Origin: Bdellovibrionales bacterium RIFOXYD12_FULL_39_22
GTDB taxonomy: Bacteria > Bdellovibrionota > Bacteriovoracia > Bacteriovoracales > Bacteriovoracaceae
Assembly (NCBI GenBank): GCA_001770205.1
Contig: MEQL01000015.1
Location: 1-52,064 of the forward strand
Reading direction: 5' to 3'
DNA length: 52,064 bases
In this document: positions 271-23,136 of the stretch, piece by piece
Position numbering within the stretch: position 1 is the first letter of the stretch
How the letters are laid out: the number at the start of each line of letters is the position of its first letter
Notes under the pieces: generated by a model
The model's input: only the letters and a program-made list of their open reading frames with translations
Database searches by the model: none
Told to the model about the DNA's origin: nothing
Program-made: the position numbers and the translations under genes

Positions 271-1665
271 ATGAGATTGCACGGGAAAATAGGCACTAGA
301 GTTTTGAAAAAATTTGAAGGTTTTTCTTTTGTTGAAATCATGGTTGCCGTCGGACTTACTGGAATGATCTCATTAGGAACAGTTAAAATTATTGACATGA
401 TGAACAGAGGGCAAAAGAATTTAACTCAGCATGTGACAACAAATAGGCTTGATTTTGAAATTATGATGACATTGATGGATAAATCAGGCTGTGAATTGAC
501 AATGAATGGAATAACGCCACCCACGGTAACTGGCGACTCGTTAACCCTTGCCGATCACGGAATAATTGCTCGTGGTGATAGATTAATTACAACTACAGAT
601 TCTGCATTGCCACAAAATGTTCATGATTTTGCACAAGGTGGGATAATGATTCACGAGAGTACCTCTATCCTCAAGGACAGGGATTCAGACTCGTTAGCGC
701 CGGGAGATGGAATTCCAAATCACTACATGTTGAATTTGATGTTTAGAAAAAGGGCCTCGTCAGTTGGCGCAGACTCGATCCCTGTAAAAATCCCGCTATG
801 GGTAATTCAGGATAATGGTGTAGATGGAACAATAACTACATGTTTTACACAGGAAGATGCCTATGTACAGGCGGCATGCGCTTCGCTTTTGGGAACATTA
901 GAATACGGTTATTGCAAGCGATTGCAAATTTTTCAAAGTGGTGTACCTGTTCCGGCAATACCACCTGCTGACGATAATTATTCTATGAGCTTGTTTGGAA
1001 ATTTTTTTGTTAATGGAGAAGGTTCTGGGGCGGGCATAATTTTTCAGGATACTTTGGATGATACTGAGATTGATATAAGAGGTGGGGATTTTTCCGATAA
1101 TAAAATTGCAATGGCCTCAGATCGTATCGCAGGGCAGTTAGTACTTAATGCCGACAATAGTTTTGATTCCACAAAGGGTTATGCAAAATTATTCCTTCTC
1201 GGGAATGAAAGTGTTGAGCTTAGAGCACCTATTTATCATTTTAAATCATTAGATGGGGGGAATACATTTTTAACTGTTACTGATGGCCCTGCCGTTTTTA
1301 ACTATGGACTTACAATAGCTGCTGGTCAATCTATTGGTTTTGCCTCCGATAAATCACAAAAAAAAGAAATTAGTCCTTTGGTCAAAGTTTTAGAAAAAAT
1401 TGAAAAAATTAGCGGGGTAAGTTTTCGCTGGAAAGACTCAAATCAAAAGGATATTGGGGTGATTGCACAAGATATTGAAAAAGTATTTCCTGAATTAGTT
1501 GCCACAAATGGTGAAGATGGAAAACTTATGGTAAAATATCCTCAGCTATCTGCAGTCTCTATTCAGGCCATAAAAGAGCTTCATAAAGAAAATAGATATC
1601 TTCTACAAGAAGTTCAAAGCTTAAAAAAATATCTTTGTGATCGAGATGGGAAGTTTTGCAAGTAG
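271..1665 (+). CDS. Type IV prepilin-like N-terminus fused to a fibre body and a C-terminal peptidase S74 intramolecular chaperone domain
   Basis: KKFEG|FSFVEIMVAVGL class III signal with E5; C-terminal SDKSQKKEI...GVSFRWK...IGVIAQDIEKVFPELV...AIKEL plus coiled coil; ATG 271 has GGAG upstream (ORF track starts at TTG 211). Confidence 0.85.
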   Translation: MRLHGKIGTRVLKKFEGFSFVEIMVAVGLTGMISLGTVKIIDMMNRGQKNLTQHVTTNRLDFEIMMTLMDKSGCELTMNGITPPTVTGDSLTLADHGIIARGDRLITTTDSALPQNVHDFAQGGIMIHESTSILKDRDSDSLAPGDGIPNHYMLNLMFRKRASSVGADSIPVKIPLWVIQDNGVDGTITTCFTQEDAYVQAACASLLGTLEYGYCKRLQIFQSGVPVPAIPPADDNYSMSLFGNFFVNGEGSGAGIIFQDTLDDTEIDIRGGDFSDNKIAMASDRIAGQLVLNADNSFDSTKGYAKLFLLGNESVELRAPIYHFKSLDGGNTFLTVTDGPAVFNYGLTIAAGQSIGFASDKSQKKEISPLVKVLEKIEKISGVSFRWKDSNQKDIGVIAQDIEKVFPELVATNGEDGKLMVKYPQLSAVSIQAIKELHKENRYLLQEVQSLKKYLCDRDGKFCK

Positions 1666-1671
1666 AGTTTG

Positions 1672-2055
1672 TTAAGTGAATAGATTCCAGCCAATGTCTG
1701 GCCCCAAATATTGAAGAGTAAAATGTTTGGTTTCATCGAGGTTGATCTCTTTTTCAACGATAATGTCGCGAACAGTTCCCATAACTTTTTGACCATTTGA
1801 TAAGATGATGGGGCCATTTCGCCATTTTGTCTTTAGCACATAAAAATGAATTACGGTGGTGATTGCTTCTGGATTAGCAGGCAAAATTATCTTTGCATCA
1901 CCTACAAGGGTATGAGTGGCCGTTTCATTATCTGTAATTTTAATCTCTTTTTTTGCAAATAAATATAACGGGGCATCTTTAATCTTTTGCCCGATAGTCG
2001 CTTTGCCTGCAATTGCGGCCGCAAAAAGAGTCGTCAAAAAACTTCTTCGCTCCAT
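1672..2055 (-). CDS. Tat-signal protein carrying one phage tail-fibre-type repeat
   Basis: MERRSFLTTLFAAA twin-arginine-type signal; IILPANP...ILSNGQKVMG...FTLQYLGPDIGW resembles the LPxxP...NGxxIxG...LxY...GW repeat of T4-like long tail fibres. Confidence 0.6.
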   Translation of the reverse strand: MERRSFLTTLFAAAIAGKATIGQKIKDAPLYLFAKKEIKITDNETATHTLVGDAKIILPANPEAITTVIHFYVLKTKWRNGPIILSNGQKVMGTVRDIIVEKEINLDETKHFTLQYLGPDIGWNLFT

Positions 2056-2145
2056 AAAGTTCCCGTTGAAATTAAATCGGATATCAATTACCCTACTAGA
2101 GTATTTGTTTGGTTTTTATCTGTCAAAATTTACCTGGAGCTATTT

Positions 2146-2703: not shown

Positions 2704-3345
2704 TTAGTCTCTTTTAAAAATCAGTCGGGCCACTTCACAATAGTTAAATCCAAATATTTTGCCATCAGATTCGTTGGTAATTTTTATTCCAGATAAACTA
2801 CATGGATGCGTGTCATCTTCTTTTATCTCACCTATATATCTTCGACACAGCTTCACTTTTGTTTCAATATACTTAGAAATATCAAATCCAACATTGAAAT
2901 GATGTTCGATAAATGACCAATCGGAACTACCTGGTATTTTATATTGATAAAACTCTCGAACAGAACACTTTCTAATTGGGCGACAGGTTAAACGGAGACT
3001 TTCGCCAACCACCTGATGATCTCGATGCAAATCACTTTCGCAGGGGCCAAATACAACATCAGGCATATATGTATTAACTTCTTCTTGAAGAATTGAGACA
3101 ACTTCTCGGAAATTGTTATGAAGTGTTAAGTCTGGAATCTCAAAAATTTGATGTGGAATTTTAAGTTCCAACATATTTTCGACAAAAGCTTTTTTTCTAT
3201 GCGTTGAATCTTCTGCGCTCCTTCCGTTACACAACACAATCGCCCTTATCGTGTTCACAGTAGAATATCTGGCCAAAGATCCTCCCAACCCAAACTCAAT
3301 ATCATCTAAATGTGCACCAACCATTAAAATTTTTCTATTTTCCAT
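2704..3345 (-). CDS. PIG-L/LmbE family de-N-acetylase
   Basis: GAHLDDIE and DLHRDHQ zinc-binding motifs. Confidence 0.9.
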   Translation of the reverse strand: MENRKILMVGAHLDDIEFGLGGSLARYSTVNTIRAIVLCNGRSAEDSTHRKKAFVENMLELKIPHQIFEIPDLTLHNNFREVVSILQEEVNTYMPDVVFGPCESDLHRDHQVVGESLRLTCRPIRKCSVREFYQYKIPGSSDWSFIEHHFNVGFDISKYIETKVKLCRRYIGEIKEDDTHPCSLSGIKITNESDGKIFGFNYCEVARLIFKRD

Positions 3346-3809
3346 TCAACATTATCCCACCCAAGCCTAATAAATCTCACTCCTTTTTTCTGTATTCCTT
3401 CCAAGACATTTTTTATAAAAGTCTTTCTATCGAAAGGAGAATACATTGGAATGCCTAAGGCCTTGCATAATTGCTCATCATCATCGATTAGATGCCCTCT
3501 TCCGGCCACACTATAACACCCATTGTGGCCAGCGTTAACAAAAATAATAGATCCAAAATTTTCAGCAAATCCCTTAATATTGAATTTAATCTGTTCATAC
3601 GCCTTATATATAACAAATCCGGCCACACCATAAATGATTACTTTCTTTCCTTGGGATGCTAGTCCTGCTGCGATATTGACCATGTTAGATTCCTGAACGC
3701 CGCAGTTTATTAAATTACACTTCGTTTCAAATCCCCACATATCACAGTGAAGAAGATAAATGTCATCACACTTCTGACGACTTAAGAAATAGTGCAAGGT
3801 CTTTCTCAT
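3324..3809 (-). CDS. Transketolase-like pyrimidine-binding subunit (short)
   Basis: INCGVQESNMVNIAAGLASQGKK, KAYEQIK motifs; lacks the C-terminal domain. Confidence 0.85.
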   Translation of the reverse strand: MRKTLHYFLSRQKCDDIYLLHCDMWGFETKCNLINCGVQESNMVNIAAGLASQGKKVIIYGVAGFVIYKAYEQIKFNIKGFAENFGSIIFVNAGHNGCYSVAGRGHLIDDDEQLCKALGIPMYSPFDRKTFIKNVLEGIQKKGVRFIRLGWDNVEWKIEKF

Positions 3810-4485
3810 TCAATTTCCTATAATGCCATTTTTTTGGATTTAACTCCATTTCAGGAACACCAAATCCCTTTATTGTTTTAAAAAAAACCGCTGTGGGGCG
3901 ACATCTTTTTAATTTATTCATTACTGTTATGATTTGCTTATGATCATATCCATCAACAAAATGGAAATCCCAGCTATAATTGATAAGTAATTGCGTTACT
4001 GGCCCGACGTCTAGTATTTCACTGGTTTTTCCAGTTACCTGAGAGTTGTTATAATCGACTGTAAGAAAAATATTTTTTAACTGGTGATGACCAATAAACC
4101 CGATGGCCTCCAACGTATTACCCATTTGTAAAGAGGCATCAGATATGTTTACCCAGACATTTTTGGTAGTTGTTAAAGCAATTCCACTTGCAACTCCCAG
4201 AGCATTTCCCATTGTCTCTTCGCTGAAAGCGACAAACGGAACTTCATCATGCTTCACGCCACTAGATAATTTCTCAATGTTGGCAATAAGCTTTAGTCTT
4301 TCCCAAACTAAGTAATAGGCCTGCGCCCCAAATGGTTTTCCAATACAAATAATGTCATCTAATGTAATAAACTTATCTGTAAAAAGGATATCAATGTAGG
4401 ACAGCATAGATAATGCCGATGGTATGTGAGACAGTCCATTTTTATAAGAGTAGCAGAGTAGTTGTTTTATGAGGTCTCTGTTCAT
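3766..4485 (-). CDS. Transketolase-like thiamine-diphosphate-binding subunit
   Basis: SHIPSALS, MGNALGVASGIA, divergent ThDP motif SDASLQMG...DYNN, TIKGFGV...KWH. Confidence 0.85.
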   Translation of the reverse strand: MNRDLIKQLLCYSYKNGLSHIPSALSMLSYIDILFTDKFITLDDIICIGKPFGAQAYYLVWERLKLIANIEKLSSGVKHDEVPFVAFSEETMGNALGVASGIALTTTKNVWVNISDASLQMGNTLEAIGFIGHHQLKNIFLTVDYNNSQVTGKTSEILDVGPVTQLLINYSWDFHFVDGYDHKQIITVMNKLKRCRPTAVFFKTIKGFGVPEMELNPKKWHYRKLNEKDLALFLKSSEV

Positions 4486-4630: not shown

Positions 4631-5398
4631 ATGGAACATAACAATCTATTAGATGAACTGAAGAAAATCTACAAAATGCACTCGTATCAATGGTCAGATA
4701 AAATCGACCTCGAACATTTAACCGGATGCTACTTCCACCATCCGGTTAACGGTATAAATATATTCGTACGTAGTTTGCATCGAAGAGATTTTTTTTCGGA
4801 GGATGAAATCGATATTCTTGATGCGCTAAGACGTTATCCAGTTGGCCCTAGTCAGAAAACAATTGTTGATTTGTATCTGTCAAAATATATTGAGCGGCCA
4901 GAATTGCTTGATAAAGAGATGGATTTTTTTTTACATAAATATAAAAAATATTTCCCCAAGTTATATATCCACAAGGAATTTATAATCGTTGAAGATTACC
5001 GCTTAAAAAGCAGTGACTGGATAACTTTTACTCCAGAGATGGCCAAAAAACATTCTTCGCAATACTTTGATTTTTTAAATAACTATTACAGCGATACAAA
5101 GCAAGACTCTCATGTTCTTCGGATACATAGTATTTACTTTTCAAATTTATTATTTAATAAAAAAACCAAAAGGTTTGTTTTTACAAACCTTGGCTATTTT
5201 GAACCAGGGCCATTCACTTATCCCTACCTATTAATTGATGATAGAGATATTCATAATATTCGATATTACAATTTTGCGCCAGGAGTAGAGTATCCCTTTA
5301 AACCGTATGATGCCTGCAATTTAAGGTTAAAATTTCAATTGATGCGGAAAAAGATTAATTTAGTACAAGAGGCCATCGGTAAACATTTGCCCGAATGA
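4631..5398 (+). CDS. Hypothetical protein, possible degenerate kinase-like fold
   Basis: FPKLY...IIVEDY and IHSIYFSNLLF...FVFTNLG follow kinase subdomain spacing but lack both catalytic Asp residues. Confidence 0.45.
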   Translation: MEHNNLLDELKKIYKMHSYQWSDKIDLEHLTGCYFHHPVNGINIFVRSLHRRDFFSEDEIDILDALRRYPVGPSQKTIVDLYLSKYIERPELLDKEMDFFLHKYKKYFPKLYIHKEFIIVEDYRLKSSDWITFTPEMAKKHSSQYFDFLNNYYSDTKQDSHVLRIHSIYFSNLLFNKKTKRFVFTNLGYFEPGPFTYPYLLIDDRDIHNIRYYNFAPGVEYPFKPYDACNLRLKFQLMRKKINLVQEAIGKHLPE

Positions 5399-5435: not shown

Positions 5436-6044
5436 ATGCAAGATAAAGTTAAATTAAGTATTTTAATATTAACACATAATAGGCCTATATTGTTTCAAAG
5501 GTGTATTGGTTCGGCACTAGAAAACAGGCCAAGTGGTGTAGAAATTATTGTCAATAATGATTCACAAGACATTAAAGAAATTCCAGGCGCTAAATATTTC
5601 TATGAAAAACACGATGACTTATCTCTGGTTTATAAGTTTTTATTTGATAATGCAAAAGGTGAATTTGTATATTTTCTCGAAGATGACGACTATCTCATGA
5701 AGAACTTCTATAAGGTAGTTATGGGTATTAAGCAAAACACTATCTTTCGATATTTTCCTGAAAAAAACATTAAGCTGTACTACGAGTACTTCAAAGATGA
5801 AGGAAAGTTTAAAACTGAATTTCAGCTGGGCCAAATTATATTTAAAAAAGAAACGGTAAAGAATTTTCCAATAGGAAATAGATTAGATAATGATTTTTTG
5901 CTTTATCTTGAAGCGAATGCAAATGAAAAATTTATAAAAAACGAAGCCTGTCTTTACGTTCAAACTCTCGATGGCAAAGATAATATTAGTTATCCATTGT
6001 TAAACAGAGATGTTCGATTTGTTGGAGATGGATGTGGAATATAA
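5436..6044 (+). CDS. Glycosyltransferase family 2
   Basis: LSILILTHNRP, EIIVNNDS, AKGEFVYFLEDDDY (DxD). Confidence 0.9.
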   Translation: MQDKVKLSILILTHNRPILFQRCIGSALENRPSGVEIIVNNDSQDIKEIPGAKYFYEKHDDLSLVYKFLFDNAKGEFVYFLEDDDYLMKNFYKVVMGIKQNTIFRYFPEKNIKLYYEYFKDEGKFKTEFQLGQIIFKKETVKNFPIGNRLDNDFLLYLEANANEKFIKNEACLYVQTLDGKDNISYPLLNRDVRFVGDGCGI

Positions 6045-6972
6045 TAGGCAATATGATAAATCACACAAAATACAAAGGCTCTATGTTCACTGGGATGTAA
6101 GTACTCAATGTAACTTTAACTGCTCATACTGTTATTCGCTTGCAGATTATTATTCTGAGTGGAACAGAATTGATTCTTGGGCCAGGCAGAAGTTAGTTAT
6201 CAGAAATATTTCAAAATCGCACCTGCCTGTTTTTTTAGGCCTTCTTGGTGGAGAGCCAACAATTCATCCTAACTACGAGGAGCTGGTTCGATTATGCCAT
6301 GAAGCTATTTCGACTCAAAAAGATGGAAGGTTATATATTACGACCAACGGTTCTCGGCCAACGAATTGGTTTGAAAGGCACAGATTCTATGAGAATACGT
6401 ATTTTTTATGGAGTGCACATTTTGAATATGAAAAATATTATGGTTTAAACTTCGAGTTAATGATCAACAATATTAAAATTATGAAGGAAAAAGGATTTCG
6501 AAATAAGGTTAATGTCATGCTTATTCCAGATAAGCAGCAATGGCCCAAAATTCATAAATTAGTCGATGAATTGGAAAAACTGGGGGTTGAGATTCATCCA
6601 CATTTTCTCTATGAGAAAGGTAATGTACACAGATTGCATGAATATTCCGATGAGTTTTATGATGAATTTGCAAGGTTTCAAAATTATCCGGGGCAATTTA
6701 TTTTTGAGGGGCCAACTGATAACCATGCCTACAACGACTATGACATATTTCATAATAAGCATACTTGTTTTACTGGATGGGATTGTTGGAATAATAATTA
6801 TGAAATTAACTATAAAGGCAAGGTGACTCGTTTTTGTTTTAAAGAAAATAGTGATTTAATAACTAATTTTAATTTTTTTAAGAATATTAAAGAAGTGCTT
6901 CCCTTGCAATGCCCCCACGAGACATGCAACTGTGATGGATTGCTGAAAATATATAAGGAAAAAATTGTTTAA
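6010..6972 (+). CDS. Radical SAM protein with C-terminal Cys motif
   Basis: CNFNCSYC, LLGGEPT, TTNGS, terminal CPHETCNC; true start may be GTG 6034 (GGAG 6 nt upstream). Confidence 0.92.
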   Translation: MFDLLEMDVEYNRQYDKSHKIQRLYVHWDVSTQCNFNCSYCYSLADYYSEWNRIDSWARQKLVIRNISKSHLPVFLGLLGGEPTIHPNYEELVRLCHEAISTQKDGRLYITTNGSRPTNWFERHRFYENTYFLWSAHFEYEKYYGLNFELMINNIKIMKEKGFRNKVNVMLIPDKQQWPKIHKLVDELEKLGVEIHPHFLYEKGNVHRLHEYSDEFYDEFARFQNYPGQFIFEGPTDNHAYNDYDIFHNKHTCFTGWDCWNNNYEINYKGKVTRFCFKENSDLITNFNFFKNIKEVLPLQCPHETCNCDGLLKIYKEKIV

Positions 6973-7858
6973 CTTTGACTCTAACACTCAATTTGATTCA
7001 GTCGGTAAAGATTACCCAATGGCCGAGTTTAGTTGGGCGATAACGAATTCATGTAACTATAATTGCAGTTATTGTTACGCAAAAAAATCAATGGAGAATT
7101 CCAAGGATGGGGATACAAGTTATAAATTTATACTTCAGAGATTGAAAATGTGTCAGGTGGTTTTTGATATAGCGCTGGTTGGAGGTGAGCCCACTAGACA
7201 TCCTAAGTTACAATTTATTATAGATGAGCTGGATAAAATAGAAAATTGCAGAGTACTAGAAATCTATTCTAACTTTACAAGGCCTGTCGATTATTATTTT
7301 AAATGGAGAAACATAAAAAAGTTGAATTTGAAAATGTCATATCACTCAGAATATCATGACAATTTTATAGGTAAGCTAAAAAAAGCAATTGAAGAAAAAA
7401 AGACCAATTTTTTGGTGCTTATAAATTTAAGTCCTAATGATAAATATTGGAACAACACGGAAGAGATTTTGAAGCTATGTAAGAATAATGGCATTGAATA
7501 TGAGATTAATTATTTATTAAGTACAGAAACTGTGCAAATAAACTATACAGAAAAGTTTTATGAATTTTTTGATGATTATATAACTGATAATATGAACGCA
7601 GAAGTTGAGCATATCATTGGCAATAAAATATACTCCATTCCAGAATCAAAAATCTTTAAATTAGGTCTATCATATCGAGGAATGAGTTGTATCCCCAGAA
7701 TGTATAGAATAGAAAGTAGCGGGGATATTATCAATAGCTGTAGCGGTAAAAGGCCAAGGTTAGTTATAAGAGAAGAAGAACTTGCTCAGAGCTACATTTG
7801 TCAGTACCAGTCTTGTGGTTGTAGCGCAATGCTGCTATTTAATAAGGTAAGAAAATAA
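6965..7858 (+). CDS. Radical SAM protein with C-terminal Cys motif (paralog of 22063-22959)
   Basis: CNYNCSYC, VGGEPT, SYHSEY, terminal CQYQSCGC. Confidence 0.92.
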   Translation: MFNFDSNTQFDSVGKDYPMAEFSWAITNSCNYNCSYCYAKKSMENSKDGDTSYKFILQRLKMCQVVFDIALVGGEPTRHPKLQFIIDELDKIENCRVLEIYSNFTRPVDYYFKWRNIKKLNLKMSYHSEYHDNFIGKLKKAIEEKKTNFLVLINLSPNDKYWNNTEEILKLCKNNGIEYEINYLLSTETVQINYTEKFYEFFDDYITDNMNAEVEHIIGNKIYSIPESKIFKLGLSYRGMSCIPRMYRIESSGDIINSCSGKRPRLVIREEELAQSYICQYQSCGCSAMLLFNKVRK

Positions 7859-7876: not shown

Positions 7877-8698
7877 TTGGGGGCCAGAGAAGTAATGAAT
7901 TTGGTTATTGCTGGAGCGTTTAGCAAATTTAAGGAGCTATCAGTATTTTTTCTTGAAAACAAGATTTACAAAAGAAATAAAATTACTGTTTATGATGGTA
8001 TTAATGAGTGTTCATGGAATGGCGGTAGAATTAATAGAAAAGTCTACTGGAGTCAATCGCAAATAGACTTCTATTATAATAGGGATATTGGGATAGGGCT
8101 GACTTTCACCAATCATGAGATCAATATTAATGATAAAGTTGGACTTTCACTGCTGGATAAATTTCATATTTCCGGGAATAAAATTATATTAATAAATGAT
8201 CATCTTAGAGAATTTATACGAAAAAATTATCCGTATTATAGACTAACCTACAGTGTTACTGGCGTAGGCCATATTCCCATCCCCCTTAATGACGAAGCCC
8301 TGGACATATACAAAGATCTAGAGGCGAAGTACGATTTAATTGTGCCCAGAATGGAACACGTCTTTGATGTTAGATTCAAGGAGCTGGATCAGTCCAAATA
8401 CGAGATAATGCTTAATGATACGTGCATATATAATTGTCCTCACTATACTGAGCATTTTATGGCCATTGCTACACAAAACTTGCTAAGACGCAACTATAAA
8501 GGCCATGAAGAGATTGAAGAGTGTTGGATTGATGGATATGACTTCAAGAAAAGCAAAAATGGAAAACATGGAATGGATTTATGCCTGGAACAAATCAGGG
8601 TATTACAAAAACAAGGGATAAACAGTTTTAAGCTTTCTGGTAGAGAATTAAATTCAGAAGAGTTTGTTAATGAGCTGAGGTATTATGCAAGATGGTAA
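7877..8698 (+). CDS. Peptidase U32-like putative Fe-S protein
   Basis: EIMLNDTCIYNCP...H...ECW...GINSFKLSGR pattern; likely start ATG 7895. Confidence 0.6.
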   Translation: MGAREVMNLVIAGAFSKFKELSVFFLENKIYKRNKITVYDGINECSWNGGRINRKVYWSQSQIDFYYNRDIGIGLTFTNHEININDKVGLSLLDKFHISGNKIILINDHLREFIRKNYPYYRLTYSVTGVGHIPIPLNDEALDIYKDLEAKYDLIVPRMEHVFDVRFKELDQSKYEIMLNDTCIYNCPHYTEHFMAIATQNLLRRNYKGHEEIEECWIDGYDFKKSKNGKHGMDLCLEQIRVLQKQGINSFKLSGRELNSEEFVNELRYYARW

Positions 8699-8741: not shown

Positions 8742-9344
8742 TTAAAAGTGAGAGTAAAATTTTGTGAGAAAATTTTCTGTTTTTCTGCGAATCTCTTCAA
8801 TTGAGTTTTCACTATTAATATGGCCAGAAAGTGTTTTGATTGGTTGAAACAAATATGATGCTCTTAGCATTTTTTCTTTTGTATTTAAGTAATTTTCAAG
8901 TAGAGAAATGAGATCCTCGTCACCTGTTTCCAGGATTTCTAAGTATTTTTCCTCGCGATTTGATTCCGTTATTACATAACCCCTATCACCTAATTCATTC
9001 ATTGAGCAAAGATGCCGATACAAAACATATCCGGTGTTTTTAGCAAGATTTAAATCAATGACATTCTGTATTTTTTTAATCGCAGATTCTTTAACTTCCT
9101 GCAATTCATTATTGCCCACGGACCTGATCTTGATTTCGTCCGGTTGCACGGAGTCATGTTTTAAAGGCCTATGGATAAAAATATGTTTATTCTTTTTTAG
9201 AGCATCCGCAATTATTTTACTTGCAGCATGTGATAGAGATAAAAATTGGCCTTTATTAAGATCGAGGTAATACCCCTTGACTGAAGCAAGTACTTTCCAA
9301 TAATCCCCCTTGTCCTCTACGAATGCCCAATTATGGTTTAACAC
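8742..9344 (-). CDS. Hypothetical protein (paralog of 14728-15360)
   Basis: 200-aa ORF; shares VEDxGxYWxVL and NELxxRGYxxTESN...EILxTxDxxLI with 14728-15360. Confidence 0.8.
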   Translation of the reverse strand: MLNHNWAFVEDKGDYWKVLASVKGYYLDLNKGQFLSLSHAASKIIADALKKNKHIFIHRPLKHDSVQPDEIKIRSVGNNELQEVKESAIKKIQNVIDLNLAKNTGYVLYRHLCSMNELGDRGYVITESNREEKYLEILETGDEDLISLLENYLNTKEKMLRASYLFQPIKTLSGHINSENSIEEIRRKTENFLTKFYSHF

Positions 9345-14718: not shown

Positions 14719-14727
14719 AGTCTGCCC

Positions 14728-15360
14728 TCACTCTGCACAGGTTGAGTAGCGAGAATAGTACTTATTGAGAAAATCATCGACATTTTTCTGAATTATTTCC
14801 GGAGAAACTTCTTGATTGTTTTTAAGTCTAAGCTCTTCAAGAGAATTGTATAATGTGGCGGAGTCATTTATCTGTTCTTTATCTTCTAAGTACTGCTCCG
14901 TTAAGGCAATCAGCTCCTTATCCTCAGTTTTTAGAATCTCTTCATGTTTTTTCTTTTTATTGCTTTCGGTAAAAAAATATCCTCTCTCAACGAGTTCGTT
15001 GTTTGCGCACATGAAACGATAAAAAACGTTGCCGCTATTTTTTGCCAGCTCGGGAGTAACAATAAGTCTTGCTCGTTTAATGGCCGCAAGGCGGATTTCT
15101 TCAATATTGTTGGGGTCGATATCAAATATTTCAATTTGTGAGGCCTGGACCTCGCTTGTTTCTAGCGGTTTTTTTATTATTACCTTTTTTTCGTAAAGAA
15201 TGGCGTTATCAATAAGTTCATAGCATATGTTAGATAGCTTGAGGTAGTTTTGATTTTTTTCATTAAGATCGAAAGTGTTTTTGGAGACGCTTAAAACATG
15301 CCAGTACTCTCCGCAATCTTCAACGTTTGCTAAATTATAGACTAACATACGCCCTCGCAT
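14728..15360 (-). CDS. Hypothetical protein (paralog of 8742-9344)
   Basis: Shared motifs as above; probable start at MLVYNL. Confidence 0.8.
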   Translation of the reverse strand: MRGRMLVYNLANVEDCGEYWHVLSVSKNTFDLNEKNQNYLKLSNICYELIDNAILYEKKVIIKKPLETSEVQASQIEIFDIDPNNIEEIRLAAIKRARLIVTPELAKNSGNVFYRFMCANNELVERGYFFTESNKKKKHEEILKTEDKELIALTEQYLEDKEQINDSATLYNSLEELRLKNNQEVSPEIIQKNVDDFLNKYYSRYSTCAE

Positions 15361-15498: not shown

Positions 15499-16437
15499 AT
15501 GAATATTTTAATTACAGGTGGCTTTGGATTTATTGGAACACATCTTGTGGAGCATTATCTTCATCAAGGTGAGTATGTTACGGTTGTCGATAATCTATCC
15601 ACAAGTGTTATTAGAAGTGATAAGTTTTTTTGCCAACATGAGGATAAGATCAAATTTTACGATCTGGATCTGGGCGATTTGTCAGGAGATAAAACTAAGT
15701 TGGTGAGTGAAATTGTTGAAAGCGCAGACTTGATTTATCATCTGGCATGTCCTGTAGGAACAAGATACATTGAAGATAATCCGAAATCATCAATTAAAAA
15801 TGGCCTTCAAATTAATACAAATCTTTTTCCTATTTTTGAAAGGCATCAAAAAAAAGTAGTATTCTCAAGCTCTTCAGAGGTGTATGGAGATAATGATGAT
15901 GCACGGGAGGAGGATGTATTACAAATTGGTCCTCCTAATATTCCGAGATGGGGATACGCTTGTCAAAAATTAATGAGTGAGTTTTTGCTGGCCACATATA
16001 CTTTCCCCTACACGATTGCACGTTTGTTTAATGTTTCAGGCCAAAGACAGACCAGTAGGTATGGGATGGTTCTGCCTACGCTAATAGAGCAAGCAAAAAG
16101 CAATCTACCGTTAACAGTATATGATGATGGACGGCAAGTGCGAAGCTTTTGTGATATTCGTGATGCAGTGGCGATGCTTACTATTCTGGGAGAGTCGGAA
16201 GAGCATAATGGGGAGATATATAATATTGGTAATCCAAATAATACTATAACTATTAAAGCACTGGCCGAACTTGTAATAGATGATTTGAAATCAATAAGTA
16301 ATATTAATTATATTCCGTTCACTGATATATTTAGAAAAAATTACCAAGATATTATATACAGAAAAGTAAATACCAGTAAGATTAGTAAATACTATAGTTG
16401 TAAATATAGTATTTCTGATATTATAAAGAGCATGTAG
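15499..16437 (+). CDS. NAD-dependent epimerase/dehydratase (UDP-glucuronate decarboxylase-like SDR)
   Basis: ITGGFGFIG, SSSEVYG, YACQK (YxxxK), ARLFN, QVRSFC. Confidence 0.9.
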   Translation: MNILITGGFGFIGTHLVEHYLHQGEYVTVVDNLSTSVIRSDKFFCQHEDKIKFYDLDLGDLSGDKTKLVSEIVESADLIYHLACPVGTRYIEDNPKSSIKNGLQINTNLFPIFERHQKKVVFSSSSEVYGDNDDAREEDVLQIGPPNIPRWGYACQKLMSEFLLATYTFPYTIARLFNVSGQRQTSRYGMVLPTLIEQAKSNLPLTVYDDGRQVRSFCDIRDAVAMLTILGESEEHNGEIYNIGNPNNTITIKALAELVIDDLKSISNINYIPFTDIFRKNYQDIIYRKVNTSKISKYYSCKYSISDIIKSM

Positions 16438-16448: not shown

Positions 16449-17042
16449 CTATAGAGAGTACTTTTTCTTTATTTCATCAATGGTGTGCACGCGATAGTTT
16501 TTATAAGTGTAAATTTCATTTTTTAGTGACAGGCAATTGATAGTTTCTTCTATAAAGTCGTGTATATCAATAAACTGAACGAGTTTTTGCATGTCGTGTT
16601 TGGGGACTAAATTATCTCTGATTTTTCTCATTAACCCCTTTTTCCTTCCGCCTCCATAAACCCTGGGAATTCTCAAAATTAGGTAATTGTCATATGTGTC
16701 TTGAATATAATGTTCCATGGCAAGCTTATATGCTCCATAATTATTTTCAACAAAAGTAGCGGCCATGGAACTTGCGAAGACAAATTTTGCCTTGTTAGTT
16801 TTGGCCACTTCTAAGGCGTTAATAGTTCCATTAATCATGGTGGTGGCCGTTTTGGATGTGTTCTTAAAGTCAAGCTCATCGCTGGGCCCAGCAAAATGCA
16901 TTACTATTTGCAAGTTATTATAATTTTTCTTCAATCTGATATCTCCATATCCTTTTATTACATTGCCAATCAAAGAGGGGGCCAGCGCACTCATTAGAAA
17001 ACCGCTTTCTCCCGTGATCAAAATATTGGATGATGGTTCCAA
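16449..17042 (-). CDS. Short NAD-dependent epimerase/dehydratase
   Basis: ITGESGFL, FVFASS, YGAYK, LRIPRVYG. Confidence 0.8.
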   Translation of the reverse strand: MEPSSNILITGESGFLMSALAPSLIGNVIKGYGDIRLKKNYNNLQIVMHFAGPSDELDFKNTSKTATTMINGTINALEVAKTNKAKFVFASSMAATFVENNYGAYKLAMEHYIQDTYDNYLILRIPRVYGGGRKKGLMRKIRDNLVPKHDMQKLVQFIDIHDFIEETINCLSLKNEIYTYKNYRVHTIDEIKKKYSL

Positions 17043-17133: not shown

Positions 17134-18042
17134 ATGTCAACAATTTTGCGTCTTGATAAAATTACATACGATCTCTGGTTGAGTTATTCTTGGAGCGGTA
17201 ATAACCAGGGCATATGTGGGCACACCTTTGAGGTAATTGATTATTACTTATTATTAAAGAAGTATTTTAGGGTTGGAATTCTTTTGGCGGAAGATATTGA
17301 TTGGCCAACGTTCAAGCAGGCAATTACTAGCAAATACGATATATCGCTTCTAGAGCTTGAAGAGATTCAAGCTGATACTGTATTTTTCAATCGTCCGAAG
17401 CTCGTTACTGGTAATAATATCCTTTTTACTGATGGGGGGGTTACTTCTCTTAAAAATAAGACATTACTTTTTGATAATATTTTTCATTTTAGTTGTGGAG
17501 ATTTAACAATTAAAAATAATAAATCTGCAAAAACCTTTATACTACAGGATGAAAGAATTTATGGTAGATGCTTAAATAGTATTGATTATAAGAAAAAGAT
17601 ATACTTTTCGAGGTATAAAAAAATTATATCCGCAGAAAATAATATTTTGCTTTACGGTACTAAAAACTGTCGGAATATATCGCTTGAACTTTATTACGAA
17701 ATACTAAATCAATATCACGGAAACTTTATTTGTCTAACCAACGAATCAAACCGCTTCGAAGGACTCCCTGAAAGATTTAGATTTTTAAAAATGCCAGTCG
17801 ATAATCTGTTTGAAATGTTTACAACCTATATTTATACTCCAATAGAAAGAAAGTTTGATTGTAGCCCGCGTTTAATCGCAGAATGTAAGTTTTATGGTAA
17901 GAATGTGATATATCATAAAATAGACTATTGGGATGAAGATCGTGGTCTGTACTACAGAAAGTGGGATATCGATAATGATTTTGATTCAATTTGTCTTAAC
18001 GAAAATGATGAAATTATAGATGTTTTAAAAAAAATAATTTAA
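17134..18042 (+). CDS. Hypothetical protein, possibly glycosyltransferase-like (family of 30508 and 31321)
   Basis: GICGHTFEVIDYY, KIYFSRYKKI, DCSPRLIAECKFYGK align with the two downstream genes. Confidence 0.65.
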   Translation: MSTILRLDKITYDLWLSYSWSGNNQGICGHTFEVIDYYLLLKKYFRVGILLAEDIDWPTFKQAITSKYDISLLELEEIQADTVFFNRPKLVTGNNILFTDGGVTSLKNKTLLFDNIFHFSCGDLTIKNNKSAKTFILQDERIYGRCLNSIDYKKKIYFSRYKKIISAENNILLYGTKNCRNISLELYYEILNQYHGNFICLTNESNRFEGLPERFRFLKMPVDNLFEMFTTYIYTPIERKFDCSPRLIAECKFYGKNVIYHKIDYWDEDRGLYYRKWDIDNDFDSICLNENDEIIDVLKKII

Positions 18043-18065: not shown

Positions 18066-19055
18066 TTAATAATATCGATAGTGATTGAAGTCGAAGAAAC
18101 ATTTGTCATATGTACAGGTAATCGATTTCATATTTTGCAAGAAGTCCAGGCACTCTTTTTTTGAAAATATGTTATGTTCCGCCTTCTGTGTTTCATCAAA
18201 AATTTGATTGAAACAGCGATAGCAATCTCCATTAGAGTCGATAACAATTCTTTCTTTGCCCACATCACAAAGCATGCCGTTAAAACTATTTTGACGATTT
18301 TTCCATAGATATGCGGAGGAGACATAGCTGTGGGTGCCATCACAATAGTTGACCCTTAATCTGTCAATAAAGGAAAAGTCATTTTTTGATAGATTAAGAG
18401 CTTCCGGGCAATTATAGAATTTATCAATATCTTCATATGGCCGAGGAGAGTTTTCTTTAACAGAACCACACAATAGAGGTAAAAGCTCGGTCTTAACTTT
18501 TGGAAAAATTTTCCGCAATATTTTTAGATTTTTAATTATGTCTGTTCGATAATCGTCCTGATACATCACGGCAATTTGGTCTAGCATTTTATATCTATTA
18601 GCGATGACGCAATTATTGAAAAAATCTTCAAAATCGCATTCTGTGTAATGATAAGAGGTAAGGAAAAAAACAGGCCGTGTTTTTCTATGGCCATTAATTC
18701 TGTCACAAAAGAATTGAAATTTTTCTTTCTTTACGGAGAGATTTGTTTGAATTTCTAAAATGCTGTTTCTCTCCAAAGCATCCAAAATACCTTCAACGGC
18801 ATATAGAAAATCAGGGTGAATAGTTGGTTCTCCTCCATATAGAAAAAAACGAATATCTCTATTTAATGCTTTTATTAAATTTTGCAGTCCTTTAATTTCG
18901 AACTGGTCATCTTTTCTGTCATTGTTGTGCATGTCGGTACAGTACCAACAATTGTAGTTACATTTTGAAGTTAGGCGATAATCTACGCAAAAGAGGTCAC
19001 GCTCTTCCGATCCAAAAGAAATCATATTTTTTATTGGCCTGTTTTCTTTAGCCAT
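18066..19055 (-). CDS. Radical SAM protein with C-terminal Cys motif
   Basis: CNYNCWYC, YGGEPTIHP, QTNLS, SYH, CDVG...GDCYRC...CTYDKC. Confidence 0.92.
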   Translation of the reverse strand: MAKENRPIKNMISFGSEERDLFCVDYRLTSKCNYNCWYCTDMHNNDRKDDQFEIKGLQNLIKALNRDIRFFLYGGEPTIHPDFLYAVEGILDALERNSILEIQTNLSVKKEKFQFFCDRINGHRKTRPVFFLTSYHYTECDFEDFFNNCVIANRYKMLDQIAVMYQDDYRTDIIKNLKILRKIFPKVKTELLPLLCGSVKENSPRPYEDIDKFYNCPEALNLSKNDFSFIDRLRVNYCDGTHSYVSSAYLWKNRQNSFNGMLCDVGKERIVIDSNGDCYRCFNQIFDETQKAEHNIFSKKECLDFLQNMKSITCTYDKCFFDFNHYRYY

Positions 19056-19983
19056 CTAGTATGTGCCTTTCCAAGTGGCCTTGGTAGTTTTCGCTGCTTT
19101 CCCTAAATCTGCGCCAATAATTTGGATCACTGTCCGGTGTGTTGTAGTCCACAAAATACCCCATCCACTGAGCTACATGTCTGTCGGCGGGATATTCTTC
19201 ATGCCTTGCGATTTTAAATCTTACTAGGCCCATATCTAAAAACTCTTGCAGTCGTTCTTTTGTGTACCAGTAGTCAAAGTTCTCGACTCCTAAATGGCAT
19301 TGCTTAAGGCATGTTTTTTGAAAAATATGATCATAAAGTTTTCCAAAGGGCGTTACTTTATTTAGCATGCTCAGATACCGGTACATTTGTCCGGCAAGTT
19401 TGCAATATAAGTAACAGTCATTATCGACAACAAGTTCTAGTCTCGATACATCTAAATTTTTGTGTAATTTTTCAAACAGAGGTGGTTCAAGAAGTTCTTT
19501 GGGAATTACAACTATGTTGTATTCGTCTAATTTTTTTTTATAGTAATCCCAAAATTTTTCACCTTTAAGGGCCCAGAGTGTTTCATCTGCATAAGAGGCC
19601 GTAATGGAATAGGAGGTTTCATAATCGGGATAATGAATCTTAATATGACTTCTTAAACTTTCATTACACAAAATAATTCTATTCCCTTTTCTGTAGAATC
19701 GCTCTAGCACTTCATTTCCCAAGGGGTCGTTGAGAGATATTTGGCGATTTGTTAGAGGTATGCTTATGTTTATATTTCTTTCGTAAAAATTTTCAAGGCC
19801 TTCATATTTCATCTTTTCTTTAGTAACAAACCTGCCCCCTCCCCAGGTACACATGCTAATACCATCGTAGACATTAACTTCCCCGTACTTAATTGGGAGA
19901 TTGTCAAAAACTTTTAAGAAAGGTTCTCGTAGTTGGAGTCCGCGGCCAATCTCCCATTTTATTTTTAAATTCCTGTCAGACAA
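19048..19983 (-). CDS. Peptidase U32-like putative Fe-S protein (paralog of 7877-8698)
   Basis: VYDGISMCTWGGGR vs VYDGINECSWNGGR; ELVVDNDCYLYC; RFKIAR. Confidence 0.6.
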   Translation of the reverse strand: MSDRNLKIKWEIGRGLQLREPFLKVFDNLPIKYGEVNVYDGISMCTWGGGRFVTKEKMKYEGLENFYERNINISIPLTNRQISLNDPLGNEVLERFYRKGNRIILCNESLRSHIKIHYPDYETSYSITASYADETLWALKGEKFWDYYKKKLDEYNIVVIPKELLEPPLFEKLHKNLDVSRLELVVDNDCYLYCKLAGQMYRYLSMLNKVTPFGKLYDHIFQKTCLKQCHLGVENFDYWYTKERLQEFLDMGLVRFKIARHEEYPADRHVAQWMGYFVDYNTPDSDPNYWRRFRESSENYQGHLERHILDG

Positions 19984-20045: not shown

Positions 20046-20879
20046 CTATATTTTATTCAAATCATAATGCTTATCCATAAAAATTTTATCATCATACACT
20101 CTGGCCAGTCTGTAATAAATCAATTTGAGAAGTTTAATCTTTTCCTTACTGTAATTAAGAAAATTAAATAGTAGAAGTTCATCTCTTATTCTTTTGCTTG
20201 AATCACTTTCATACCCAGGGCCAAAATTGGGAAAATCAATAACGATTGAATCTAAATCACACATAACAATTTTGTCGCCATTAACAAGTAAATTCGCGGG
20301 CCTAATATCGATACAGGAGAGACCCTCTTTAATTGTTTCGTTGCCACTATATTTTTCAAGAATGAGCTCTGCCACGGCCTGTTCATCACTATTAAAATAT
20401 TCTAGCTCAAGCAATTTTTTTAGAGGTATTTCATCAAAATCGTTAATTATGGAATTCATCTGAATTAGCATTTTAACAAAATTTCTAATAAAACTGCAGT
20501 TGTCAAAATCTTCCAAGGTACTCTCCCTATAATCGGAATACCATTTAAAAATTAAACAACTTTCTAGATTATGCTCTAATTTTATAAAAAAATTAAAATG
20601 ATTCATGCAGGTGAAATAATTCTCGTAATAAAGATTTTTTGAGAGAGGGCCCCCACCAAGCGTTAAGATATTTTTAATATAACTTTTAGGAACAACTTTG
20701 TATTTTTCTCCATTTTTGTTAAACACAAATTTTCCAAGCTCAAATTTTTTTGAAGTATCTATATCTTTGAGCGTTATATTTAAATCAGTGAGTCTATTTA
20801 TTTCTTCTAAATAGTTGCCAGCACTTTGAAGTGCTTTTATATATTTTATATCCATCCTGTTGTTCATAGAAAATGCCAA
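20046..20879 (-). CDS. Protein-kinase-like/phosphotransferase fold protein
   Basis: CIDIRPANLLV...IVMCDLDS (catalytic DxxxxN and DxD). Confidence 0.65.
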   Translation of the reverse strand: MAFSMNNRMDIKYIKALQSAGNYLEEINRLTDLNITLKDIDTSKKFELGKFVFNKNGEKYKVVPKSYIKNILTLGGGPLSKNLYYENYFTCMNHFNFFIKLEHNLESCLIFKWYSDYRESTLEDFDNCSFIRNFVKMLIQMNSIINDFDEIPLKKLLELEYFNSDEQAVAELILEKYSGNETIKEGLSCIDIRPANLLVNGDKIVMCDLDSIVIDFPNFGPGYESDSSKRIRDELLLFNFLNYSKEKIKLLKLIYYRLARVYDDKIFMDKHYDLNKI

Positions 20880-20885
20880 ATGAGG

Positions 20886-21914
20886 TTAGTAGTTTCTTAT
20901 ACTTGATTTTTCTTCATGCAATCTTTTCGCTTGTTTGCATATCAACTCACAATTTTCATTACAAACAGGAATTTTGTGTTTAACAAGGCGGTCCCAAAAA
21001 TCCTCATAATGATTATTAAGTATTGTCATTATGTCGTAATGATAGATATTTATTTTATCCAGATCTTTTGAAAATGAGTAAGGCTCAGAAACATACTCAC
21101 CGGCCAGGCAGCAGGGAGAAACATATCCAAAGGCATCAATGAATGCACCTTGAGTATCCAATGCCTCGCACTCAATTGTAAATTTCTTTCTTTTGCCAAG
21201 GGCCTTCACCAGCCTACTTTCAAGATTATTATCAAGGCTAAACTCGTCAGTCCTTTTTTTTCTTCTATCGCTACCTTCTGAAACAAATAAGTCCCATGGC
21301 TCGTGTGCTACAAAGCGGGTAAATCCGTTATGCTGGCCAAGTTTTATTGCCTTAGAGAGGTGACAAACATTGTATCCAAAAGTAATAAATTTCCATACTG
21401 TTTCGCAGCTTCCTGCTTTTAAAGACGCATGGTTATTTAAAACTGTATTGAAGTTGCCATTTTTTCTATATCTAGAGTATGTTTCTTGATCTATACCATC
21501 CAACGCAAAGACAACGGTGTCACTTTTGGTGAGAATGCTTCCAAGATCACGCCACCACGTCTCTGGATGATTATTGCCGTTGGTCTCAATTTCGATTGCA
21601 ATTTCTCTCGATTTTAAAAATTTTATTATCTCAAGAAAATCAGGATGAAGGGTTGGCTCTCCCTGTATTCCACATAGTAATATAAACCGAATTGGCAGCG
21701 AAGATATCAATCTAAAAATAATCTCACTATTTAGAGAATGCCCGTATGGCCTTTTTGATGTGATTTCTTGAAAGCTTTGAAATACATGTGGAGCATTTCT
21801 TGAACATGATGGGCAAGCAAGCGAACAATTCTTTGTTAGTTCAATATGAAGATTTTTAATATCCCCGTATTTCACAATACTCAATCCATTTGTAGAAGTT
21901 TGTTTTGGCCTCAC
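20886..21914 (-). CDS. Radical SAM protein with Twitch/SPASM domain
   Basis: CSLACPSCSR, CGIQGEP, ETNG, FALDG, C...GYVSPCC...CNENC. Confidence 0.92.
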   Translation of the reverse strand: MRPKQTSTNGLSIVKYGDIKNLHIELTKNCSLACPSCSRNAPHVFQSFQEITSKRPYGHSLNSEIIFRLISSLPIRFILLCGIQGEPTLHPDFLEIIKFLKSREIAIEIETNGNNHPETWWRDLGSILTKSDTVVFALDGIDQETYSRYRKNGNFNTVLNNHASLKAGSCETVWKFITFGYNVCHLSKAIKLGQHNGFTRFVAHEPWDLFVSEGSDRRKKRTDEFSLDNNLESRLVKALGKRKKFTIECEALDTQGAFIDAFGYVSPCCLAGEYVSEPYSFSKDLDKINIYHYDIMTILNNHYEDFWDRLVKHKIPVCNENCELICKQAKRLHEEKSSIRNY

Positions 21915-22062
21915 TCTTTGTCAATTTTGCTTAAAGAAACCCCAGGTGTCAATGGAACCATTTGATGTCGTGGTTTACAATAGCAGAGATACATTTTACA
22001 ATTAATGGCCACAATAATTGCGATGGGCAATTAATATAATGGCCAATAATGCCAGGAAAGTA

Positions 22063-22959
22063 ATGCAAAATTTTAACTCCAGTACCCAATTCGATTTGGT
22101 TGGTAATGATAGTGAAGCATTAGATATTAATTGGGCGCTAACAAATTATTGTAACTACGACTGTAGTTACTGCTACAATAAAACATTAATGAGGCGTACT
22201 CCCAATAAGAATGCCGAATACAAAGTCATACTTAAAAGATTGAAAATGTGTCAGGTTTGTTTTGATATTTTACTAGACGGAGGAGAGCCGACGAAGCATC
22301 CCAATTTACAATTCATTCTAGAGGAACTCGAGAAAATCGATAACTGTAAACAGATTGAGGTTCATACAAATTTCACCGAGTCTATCGATTATTACTATAA
22401 CTTAAGAAATATAACAAAGTTGAATATAAAAGCATCATATCATCCTGAATATCATTATAATTTCATAGAAAAATTAAAAATGGCAATAGCGGAAAAGAAA
22501 AATAATTTTATGGTGTCAGTAAATCTGAGTTCAGATAAAAAATTTTGGAATAAAACCGAAGAAGTTATTATATTCTGTCAAACACATGCTGTCGGTTACG
22601 AGCTAAACTATTTGCATGATACAGAAAATGTTAAAATTGGTTACACGGAGCAGTTTTTCAAAATCTTCGATCAATATATAACAAATAGGGACGGGGCCAT
22701 TGTGCATGTTATTGACAATAAGATTTATAATTTTACCGAATCAAAAATTTATCAATTGGGTTTGACATACAAGGGGATGAGTTGTTTTCCAAGAATGTAC
22801 AGAATAGAAAGTAATGGGGAAATTATAAATGGCTGTAACGGTATAAAACTTCCCCTTGTTATAAAAAAAGAGCACGTTAACCAAGCATACATTTGCCCTC
22901 ATGAAATTTGTAGTTGTAGCGAGATGCTCTTTTTTAAGCGCACCAAGAAATATCAATAA
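22063..22959 (+). CDS. Radical SAM protein (paralog of 6965-7858)
   Basis: CNYDCSYC, GGEPT, long identical stretches (RLKMCQV, GMSC, PRMYRIES); start chosen by alignment with the paralog. Confidence 0.92.
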   Translation: MQNFNSSTQFDLVGNDSEALDINWALTNYCNYDCSYCYNKTLMRRTPNKNAEYKVILKRLKMCQVCFDILLDGGEPTKHPNLQFILEELEKIDNCKQIEVHTNFTESIDYYYNLRNITKLNIKASYHPEYHYNFIEKLKMAIAEKKNNFMVSVNLSSDKKFWNKTEEVIIFCQTHAVGYELNYLHDTENVKIGYTEQFFKIFDQYITNRDGAIVHVIDNKIYNFTESKIYQLGLTYKGMSCFPRMYRIESNGEIINGCNGIKLPLVIKKEHVNQAYICPHEICSCSEMLFFKRTKKYQ

Positions 22960-23136
22960 GTTTAAGGACATTAACGGGGGCGCACAACAGTGATTTGTAT
23001 CTTGGACTGATGGCCACATGTCGCAAACTAGGCATCAGTTCTGGTGAATTATTAAAAGATCGATTTTATCATATTGATAAGATTCCAGTACTTGCGGAAG
23101 TTATACTGGCAGCGCCATAGCTTTTTGAGCAATTAC
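22947..23136 (+). mobile_element. IS66-family remnant (transposase C-terminus plus right end)
   Basis: Frame ending TAG 23120 reads SLRTLTGAHNSDLYLGLMATCRKLGISSGELLKDR...IPVLAEVI, like IS66 C-termini (RSxxG...D.FL.L..TCRKLGIS); followed by TTTGAGCAATTAC (GTAA-type terminal repeat). Confidence 0.7.

Follow-up and report, generated by a model that had tools for sequence, protein, structure and literature searches.

The surface structures closest to those treated here are the MAT fibres of Bdellovibrio bacteriovorus, which consist of proteins made from phage-fibre parts, carry an S74 domain with an SDxxxK motif and are used in prey recognition (PMC10769870). On the enzyme side, phages CP220 and CPt10 hold 11–12 radical S-adenosylmethionine (SAM) genes, which were termed highly unusual and for which a metabolic role was proposed (PMC2853527); why large phages carry a dozen such genes has been open since these genomes appeared. 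Here we describe an island (positions 271 to 23,136) in a stretch of 52,064 nucleotides from Bdellovibrionales bacterium RIFOXYD12_FULL_39_22, the entire contig MEQL01000015.1 and hereafter the window. In this island nine radical SAM genes, sugar genes and a gene for a protein with a cysteine-repeat (CxC) tail lie beside three genes built from fibre parts, one of which codes for a prepilin-S74 protein. The island holds a phage-derived set of ~25 genes that resides in the chromosomes of predators and is under selection.

The prepilin-S74 protein is like the MAT proteins in being made from phage fibre parts and in ending in an S74 chaperone with SDxxxK. MAT proteins have a signal peptide and a conserved β-rich domain of ~130 aa and are ~1000 aa long (PMC10769870), whereas the proteins here are of 350–570 aa and start as type IV prepilins. 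The words 'pilin' and 'radical' are absent from the main text of the MAT paper, and it describes no tailoring cassette. In the CrpC/CrpA system of Methanococcus voltae a SPASM radical SAM enzyme introduces ranthionine cross-links into a protein (PMC13692751), and in the window, too, a SPASM enzyme adjoins a cysteine-rich protein rather than a short peptide. Unlike that of the window, this system is archaeal and has one enzyme and no fibre, S74, pilin or sugar genes. The ranthipeptide PapB (NF047865) and CXXX-repeat (TIGR04115) systems provide the top NCBIfam profiles for the radical SAM genes rs3 and rs4 and likewise have a cysteine-rich target adjacent, but the scores are far under cut-off and the CxCxxx repeats of the target here belong to a folded protein of fibre type. 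HXS relies on a pair of radical SAM enzymes, aided by a small partner, for the maturation of an exported periplasmic protein that blocks phage DNA entry (PMC13128918). His-x-Ser repeats recur in a second payload described below (type B), but the target in the window is a CxC protein of phage origin in a fibre context, no HxsA-like peptidoglycan-binding effector was seen, and window proteins scored 60.9 against a cut-off of 370 with the HxsB profile and 23 against 268 with HxsC. Finally, unlike in CP220/CPt10, where the genes lie scattered and were interpreted as helping metabolism (PMC2853527), they form here one chromosomal block together with genes bearing export signals. No description of the whole system was found in the open-access literature searched, and none of the 12 passages covered, of 18 that matched, in the Peredibacter genome paper mentions the block. 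New, then, are the CxC cassette in a bacterium, the conserved three-gene mount and the cassette swap; the individual parts belong to known families.

A phage cassette in predator chromosomes

An earlier note on the window, made from its sequence alone, had listed a CxC-repeat protein. We located its gene at 9386–9838 (−); the product, a 150-aa protein of fibre type with no signal peptide, has invariant tail cysteines (alignment A4) and is the proposed substrate of the enzymes encoded next to it. These are rs3 (9851–11017, −), a PapB-like radical SAM/SPASM protein (Pfam PF04055) that is the proposed cross-linker and a homologue of CP220 gp136, and rs4 (11224–12234, −), also PapB-like, radical SAM/SPASM and detected by PF04055. 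The small partner h84 (10980–11234, −) lies between them, a position conserved in bacterial and phage loci, and a further partner, h200 (8742–9344, −; phrog_25260), comes after the CxC gene in phages and bacteria alike; a structure-atlas search with h200 found no family. SPASM cysteine positions are present in rs3 and rs4, with a weak PF13186 match in rs3; the PapB profile gave 97.1 and 94.8 bits, respectively, against a cut-off of 340, and the CXXX-repeat system profile 58 against 350. The CxC family was found by profile search, a word search with the window protein having returned only itself. In phages, S74 directly follows the CxC tail in 26 of 34 distinct proteins and in 106 of the 149 profile matches examined. 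Since the tail runs into S74 in most phage homologues, the function of S74 suggests that CxC is a trimeric fibre-type protein. In one bacterial genome (G209, L031:16265-17139) the CxC gene ends in an S74-motif stub and is followed by a separate 93-aa S74 fragment, so that the chaperone appears to be split; some phages (L091, L099) have arrays of three or four CxC paralogues, and in several of these the S74 is cut down to a stub. The signal-less CxC protein is the likely direct substrate, rather than the pilin-S74 fibre itself. The earlier reading of a domesticated fibre-tailoring system is supported, with its substrate corrected.

Of the nine radical SAM genes counted earlier, eight were detected by PF04055 when 30 window proteins were scanned against Pfam and PHROG. 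The ninth, rs6 (13714–14718, −; CxxxCxxC), matched at E 2.7e-15 when read stop to stop and is the most conserved marker of the cassette, with 602 homologues and 47% identity to CPt10_1671. Its open frame (13714–14727, −) has no ATG, GTG or TTG and lies directly after the stop of h210, in frame; the start is probably a CTG at 14718, the position at which homologues start. Gene callers would truncate rs6 to 168 aa.

We collected 68 viral loci from IMG/VR around rs6, 10 kb on each side, some of them near-identical. The cassette forms one ordered block in these loci: h302, a glycosyltransferase-like gene described below, is present in 61, rs3 in 42, the glycosyltransferase GT2 in 41, rs4 in 40, and CxC and the N-terminal transketolase half in 39 each. 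CxC never occurs in them without rs3 or rs4 (39 of 39), and 39 of the 42 loci with a strong rs3 or rs4 match have CxC. A link of the gene set to phage tail-fibre regions, raised as a check in the earlier note, was borne out upstream of the cassette, where six of six proteins tested, from four loci, match tail-fibre PHROGs; in the one phage gene tested between fibre and cassette we found a UDP-glucose dehydrogenase. Single-sequence pattern scans of viral contigs (transketolase half, rs6) returned nothing, and alignment-based searches were needed. Judged by gene order and similarity, the cassette is a syntenic module of large T4-like phages.

The likeness to CP220 named in the earlier note held in part. 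By tblastn against five pieces that together span one genome, CP220/CPt10 have homologues of rs1–4, rs6, rs7, rs9, both transketolase halves, the epimerases, the deacetylases, h200/h210 and h302, and a CxC protein is encoded there as well; none was found in these pieces for U32, GT2, pilin, Tat or g185. The CxC homologue, gp140 of CP220 (L016:20933-22537), is a 534-aa CxC-repeat protein encoded four genes before the rs3 homologue. It is annotated as hypothetical with a 'repetitive region x' and is 92–100% conserved in 15 Campylobacter phage records, three of which name it a lyase.

Among the 238 genomes of the class, rs6 and rs3 at ≥ ~50% identity occur in the same eight, and one more (G110) has a divergent rs3 with its own Cys-tail neighbour. 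In seven other Bacteriovoracaceae genomes besides that of the window the order rs4-h84-rs3-CxC-h200-h287-h302-rs6 is unbroken; the Tat gene, g185 and prepilin-S74 stand at the ends of the block and host genes lie outside it. The co-occurrence with pilin-S74 genes, which the earlier note proposed to test, was thus found. Among named records, one that carries the block (L115) is a complete chromosome. In IQ-TREE analyses the eight bacterial rs6 sequences fell on one branch (100/99) among phage sequences in a tree of 64 rows, and the eight h302 sequences did so (100/97) in a tree of 59 rows; both trees were midpoint-rooted and excluded rows under 80% cover. For every gene tested in five genomes of genus g16 the nonsynonymous divergence (dN) was far below the synonymous (dS), as counted by a simple method in which dS is saturated in distant pairs; in the pair G145/G146, dN/dS values were 0.005/0.26 for CxC, 0.004/0.30 for g185, 0.008/0.34 for the Tat protein and 0.006/0.43 for rs3. 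No stop was found within the rs6 or rs3 matches of the block-carrying genomes. Homologues scattered in lipopolysaccharide (LPS) or cofactor loci, which the earlier note had named as an outcome that would count against its reading, were thus not what we found: the same block occurs in large phages and beside prepilin-S74 in seven genomes. A broader set of 22 genome loci with rs6 comprised three from Bacteriovoracaceae, two (L118, L131) with a phage-type block on short contigs of metagenome-assembled genomes, and others with a lone or distant rs6. The sugar half of the block varies, with GT2, U32 and transketolase in the window and several rs8-like genes and a DegT aminotransferase in other genomes; both versions also occur in phages.

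The mount and its two cassettes

Three genes derived from fibre parts, two of them with export signals, had been proposed at the left end of the island, and all three were recognized. The first (271–1665, +) encodes the 464-aa prepilin-S74 fibre protein, with matches to Pfam S74 (PF13884, E 8e-15) and to tail-fibre PHROGs. It consists of a type IV prepilin N-terminus, a variable middle and a C-terminal self-cleaving S74 chaperone with SDxxxK. The N-terminus shows a class III signal (G|F) with Glu at +5 and a hydrophobic helix; the N_methyl profile reached E 0.012 in the window copy, below its cut-off, and passed the cut-off in two homologues. Among the bacterial homologues the G|F..E motif is found in 31 of 37 and SDxxxK in all 37, and the host genome encodes a prepilin peptidase (PF01478). 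A second prepilin-S74 gene, coding for 373 aa, was seen in the same genome (L291:5264-6385, on G000:C31), with no radical SAM neighbour within 12 kb.

The second gene (1672–2055, −) codes for a 127-aa protein with a signal of the twin-arginine translocation (Tat) type and a mature domain that resembles the fibre-docking proteins gp9/gp10 of phage T4. We call it gp10-like because of a structure-atlas match (TM 0.70) to all-viral clusters, one of which is named T4 gp9/10-like; a PDB sequence search with the alignment gave chance-level matches only. RRxF/L/I is present in 23 of 23 aligned homologues, rows chosen by a profile that itself includes the signal, and nine of the 23 pass the hydrophobicity mark that we chose. 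With its twin-arginine motif, its hydrophobic stretch and a TatC encoded in the host genome, the protein qualifies as a predicted Tat substrate. In another genome (G152, L138:10358-11026), which carries g185 but neither cassette marker, the same domain is the C-terminus of a larger fibre-like protein truncated by the contig end.

The third gene, g185 (2146–2703, +), encodes a short fibre-tip peptide followed by a putative self-cleaving chaperone (NAVWN-D), which we take to be of the peptidase G2 type, and has no signal peptide. In phages this domain forms the end of fibres of up to 2328 aa. Its match to the phi29 pre-neck appendage protein is weak (E 0.85), and none of 20 family members matched Pfam G2. 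An export signal is absent from g185 and from the CxC protein in every aligned row. Profiles of g185 and of the Tat domain matched nothing in any of the 68 phage loci around rs6, so we do not claim the source phage of the CxC cassette for these two genes.

Of the mount genes, g185 is present as a single copy in 31 of the 238 class genomes, from 14 of 70 genera, and in five of ~300 sampled genomes from other families. All three mount genes are found together in 31 of 36 loci (8/8 with CxC, 19/23 others of the class and 4/5 from other families), and the incomplete mounts include loci on short contigs. Where g185 is present but the CxC cassette is not, most genomes have a second, type B cassette with multiple radical SAM genes and a small protein that ends in Cys-His-x-Ser repeats and RGRR. 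The type B marker was found in 25 of the 238 genomes, 21 of them g185-positive, and never together with the CxC cassette in one genome; either rs3 or the type B marker is present in 30 of 31 g185-positive genomes vs 4 of 207 g185-negative ones. The mount is thus coupled to a cassette, and both cassette types occur within single genera (g16, g37). The Cys-His-x-Ser cassette is also a phage module, with 298 relatives; of the 80 loci kept, 65 show the HxS tail. On a quick tree three or more changes are required to account for the bacterial copies, which suggests repeated capture. Outside the class, four loci with this cassette (L286, L287, L289, L290) have two or three prepilin-S74 genes around g185.

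The payload itself is exchanged. The g185 genes of G209, with the CxC cassette, and of G232, with the Cys-His cassette, are sisters (99/91) and occupy one and the same site, ahead of a tRNA-rRNA operon, which shows that the cassette was swapped while the mount stayed in place. Genome G015 is closer to G144 in its CxC, g185 and Tat genes but closer to G145/G146 in the rs3 between them, an allele pattern that fits a CxC protein needing matching partners. A single bacterial origin is not resolved in the g185 tree (three changes, one forced). By these comparisons the three fibre genes appear to be an older, conserved mount that is paired with either of two phage cassettes.

Other genes of the island and its surroundings

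Besides rs3, rs4 and rs6, the radical SAM genes are rs1 (6010–6972, +), present in 39 of the 68 phage loci; rs2 (6965–7858, +), 56% identical to rs9; rs5 (12309–13127, −), with a short SPASM/twitch end; rs7 (18066–19055, −); rs8 (20886–21914, −), with a SPASM/twitch end and phrog_21308 at E 2.5e-39; and rs9 (22018–22959, +), with a CP220/CPt10 homologue; all six have Pfam matches. Viperin was considered as an identity and rejected, the matches being partial and of generic radical SAM similarity.

The two deacetylases, the GT2, the two epimerases and the split transketolase of the earlier note were all recovered as Pfam matches. A PIG-L family deacetylase (2704–3345, −; PF02585, E 6e-12) is followed by the transketolase halves, both short: the pyrimidine-binding half of 161 aa (3324–3809, −; phrog_23258, E 2e-35), 50% identical to CP220 gp141, and the N-terminal thiamine diphosphate-binding half (3766–4485, −; PF00456, phrog_18761), with a CPt10 homologue. 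Searched against 60 relatives, the pyrimidine-binding half matched only ordinary open frames of 296–339 aa, in 24 of them. The GT2 gene lies at 5436–6044 (+; PF00535) and the second, polysaccharide deacetylase at 13109–13717 (−; PF01522), 34% identical to CP220 gp156. They are accompanied by h210 (14728–15360, −), by sequence comparison a paralogue of h200 (40%), by an NAD-dependent nucleotide-sugar epimerase/decarboxylase-like gene (15499–16437, +; PF01370, E 6e-43), whose top NCBIfam profile, UDP-xylose synthase, stays below cut-off, and by a short epimerase-like gene (16449–17042, −; Pfam, PHROG) with a CP220/CPt10 homologue.

For the two U32-like genes, at 7877–8698 (+) and 19048–19983 (−; 32% identical to the first), the assignment was upheld by Pfam U32 matches, weak and in 10 of 21 homologues, the window copies falling below detection, and by a model of the first (pLDDT 87.9) whose best PDB match is the U32 protein Mk0906 (5d88, E 1e-5). 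The pair is predicted to have the U32 barrel fold with conserved cysteines; a PDB sequence search with the U32 alignment gave chance-level matches only. U32-fold genes occur in one of the 238 class genomes, that of the window, and in 31 of the 68 phage loci. The kinase assignments fared worse: the genes at 4631–5398 (+), an orphan with degenerate motifs and no homologue in the related loci searched, and at 20046–20879 (−), a second orphan, have kinase-like motifs only, with no Pfam, PHROG or NCBIfam match and chance-level PDB sequence matches.

Three genes had been missed. The model of h302 (17134–18042, +; pLDDT 94.8) aligned to GT-B chains with Z 15.6 and rmsd 3.8 over 264 residues, with a best Foldseek E of only 5e-3, and is thus predicted to be a glycosyltransferase-like protein with the two-domain GT-B fold; a PDB sequence search with its alignment gave chance-level matches only. 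The other two are displaced cassette genes: h264 (30508–31302, −), a paralogue (50%) of h287 whose homologues elsewhere lie between h200 and h302, and h287 (31321–32184, −), weakly like h302 (E 3e-6) and found elsewhere in the order h200-h287-h302. They lie 7 kb beyond the island, directly after the Fe-S assembly genes sufB..sufS-sufE and on the strand of these, and a link of the cassette to Fe-S supply through them is possible.

The host genome (3.95 Mb, 62 contigs) is 94.6% complete, and the closest named homologues of window genes are from Halobacteriovorax and Peredibacter, from which we take the host to be a predator of the Bacteriovoracaceae, within the Bdellovibrionota. The island begins at the contig end and has a GC content of 34.7%, against 37.9% for 24001–49300; no bounding att-like or terminal repeats were found in 1–23300. 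To its right are ordinary host genes, among them two-component systems, amtB, suf, mgsA and tmRNA. At 23236–24981 a protein of 581 aa precedes a two-component pair; its N-terminus is signal-like, its Met/Ser/Gly-rich repeats are of low complexity, and it matches no Pfam family. The segment 48914–51970, in which the tmRNA is followed by a helix-turn-helix gene, by genes for a DUF6036 nucleotidyltransferase and its partner and by part of an IS110 element, is probably a small mobile insert. As the earlier note had stated, capsid, terminase, portal and integrase genes are lacking: no such PHROG was matched among the 30 window proteins. Terminase_6N and tail-sheath searches of the genome found nothing while their positive controls worked; in a Gp23 search the control was silent.

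Proposed product and rival readings

We propose that a phage pathway for chemically finishing the tip of the tail fibre was domesticated by predatory Bdellovibrionota. The chemistry, export and function of the products are inferred, and our reading, to which we give a probability of roughly 0.6, is that a fibre-tip protein is cross-linked and glycosylated by enzymes in the cytoplasm, then exported in folded form and shown on the surface with the pilin fibre. Its steps are given in order of falling certainty. First, rs4 and rs3, with h84 and h200, would cross-link the cysteine tail of CxC, probably by thioether bonds, as suggested by the analogy with CrpC/CrpA (PMC13692751) and by the PapB-like profiles, scores well below cut-off. 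Second, the epimerases, transketolase halves, deacetylases, U32-fold proteins and remaining radical SAM enzymes may build an unusual sugar, which the GT2 and GT-B-fold proteins would attach to fibre proteins. Third, the CxC protein and the g185 tip peptide would be exported folded, carried by the gp10-like domain with its Tat signal. Iron-sulfur enzymes work in the cytoplasm, and those of the island have no export signal, so the modification should take place there and the product would have to cross the membrane already folded; the presence of a Tat signal on a domain of docking type would thereby be explained. Fourth, outside the cell, the tip would join the trimeric prepilin-S74 fibre on a type IV pilus and, fifth, act in prey or surface recognition, the last two steps by analogy with MAT fibres (PMC10769870). 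The cassette would then be an exchangeable payload, with other predators using the same mount for the Cys-His-x-Ser cassette. More tentative, and in our view somewhat less than an even bet, is the full picture of a plug-in system, in which swappable phage cassettes on a pilin/Tat/chaperone mount yield a thioether-stapled, glycosylated receptor-binding tip that hitch-hikes through Tat, is displayed on the type IV pilus and sets the prey range.

Several observations weigh against this proposal. In the stretch covered, 29 of the 68 phage loci have no CxC gene; the CP220/CPt10 homologues are dispersed and do not adjoin annotated tail-fibre genes, and gp140 is absent from the 11 virion bands listed in PMC2853527. 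Glycosyltransferases with this fold are also active on DNA, on LPS and on small molecules, so the acceptor of the sugar may be other than a protein. Two genomes of genus g29 carry g185 and a cassette with neither a Tat nor a pilin gene within 10 kb, and a pilin neighbour alone is weak evidence, since prepilin-like N-termini are common in the class (124/238 genomes). Related genomes are not independent in the counts of mounts and cassettes, the allele matching is a single event among five genomes, and the system is not needed for predation, since 207 of the 238 genomes are without g185.

The same capture and chemistry could instead serve against phages, the product being a modified protein of the periplasm or surface that keeps DNA from entering, serves as a decoy or hides the pilus that phages use as receptor. 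HXS offers a precedent, a radical-SAM-matured periplasmic effector that stops phage DNA entry (PMC13128918), and pilus glycosylation is reported to act against phage; the alternative payload bears His-x-Ser repeats, and patchy distribution with swapping is typical of defence islands. We nevertheless consider this unlikely, as the mount is made of fibre and pilin parts, the phage cassette comes after tail-fibre genes, the HxsB and HxsC profiles stay far under cut-off, and PADLOC gave no match except partial-length, generic radical SAM similarity to viperin profiles. Rather less probable still is a product that has nothing to do with the pilus, such as a protein that is cross-linked and either binds metal or is secreted, or a sugar that ends up on LPS, on DNA or on a small molecule, with the fibre genes as mere linked neighbours. 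Metal binding was suggested for CrpA (PMC13692751), neither CxC nor g185 has an export signal, the sugar half differs among genomes (GT2/U32/transketolase vs aminotransferase and rs8-like genes), and the two genomes with no nearby pilin or Tat gene would fit; yet the mount is kept with two unrelated cassettes in 14 genera and two further families, despite inversions and site changes, and the CxC homologues bear a trimer-fibre chaperone. That the island is an assembly chimera, as the earlier note had asked, or a decaying prophage remnant with no host function, as its place at a contig end, lower GC (0.347 vs 0.379), phage-like content and the filing of one such island as a viral contig in IMG/VR (L160) might suggest, is largely refuted and very improbable, because the bacterial copies are one clade within phage sequences and under purifying selection, with no internal stop in rs6 or rs3, the same block stands in a complete chromosome and between host genes in six more genomes, no terminase or sheath match was found in the genome, and two cassette genes sit among host genes beside suf. 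The record in question (L160/L212, IMGVR_UViG_2883826669_000001), a 13.8-kb 'viral' sequence, holds a bacterial mount and a Cys-His cassette, and such bacterial islands can thus be filed as viruses.

Returning to the fibre-tip proposal, capture by bacteria amounts to a natural experiment on the dozen radical SAM genes of large phages. Bacteria keep the cassette together with fibre tips that bear pilin and Tat signals; this points to a surface protein as the target, and not DNA or metabolism, and the system as a whole points to a kind of surface fibre, finished by enzymes, that has not been described. The question can be tested in cultured, harmless predators (Halobacteriovorax, Peredibacter). 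If the proposal is true, the island would represent a new class of enzyme-finished adhesins, a means by which predators shift their prey range and a source of new radical SAM and sugar chemistry, and it would be the first culturable bacterial handle on the role of the widespread phage radical SAM cassettes.

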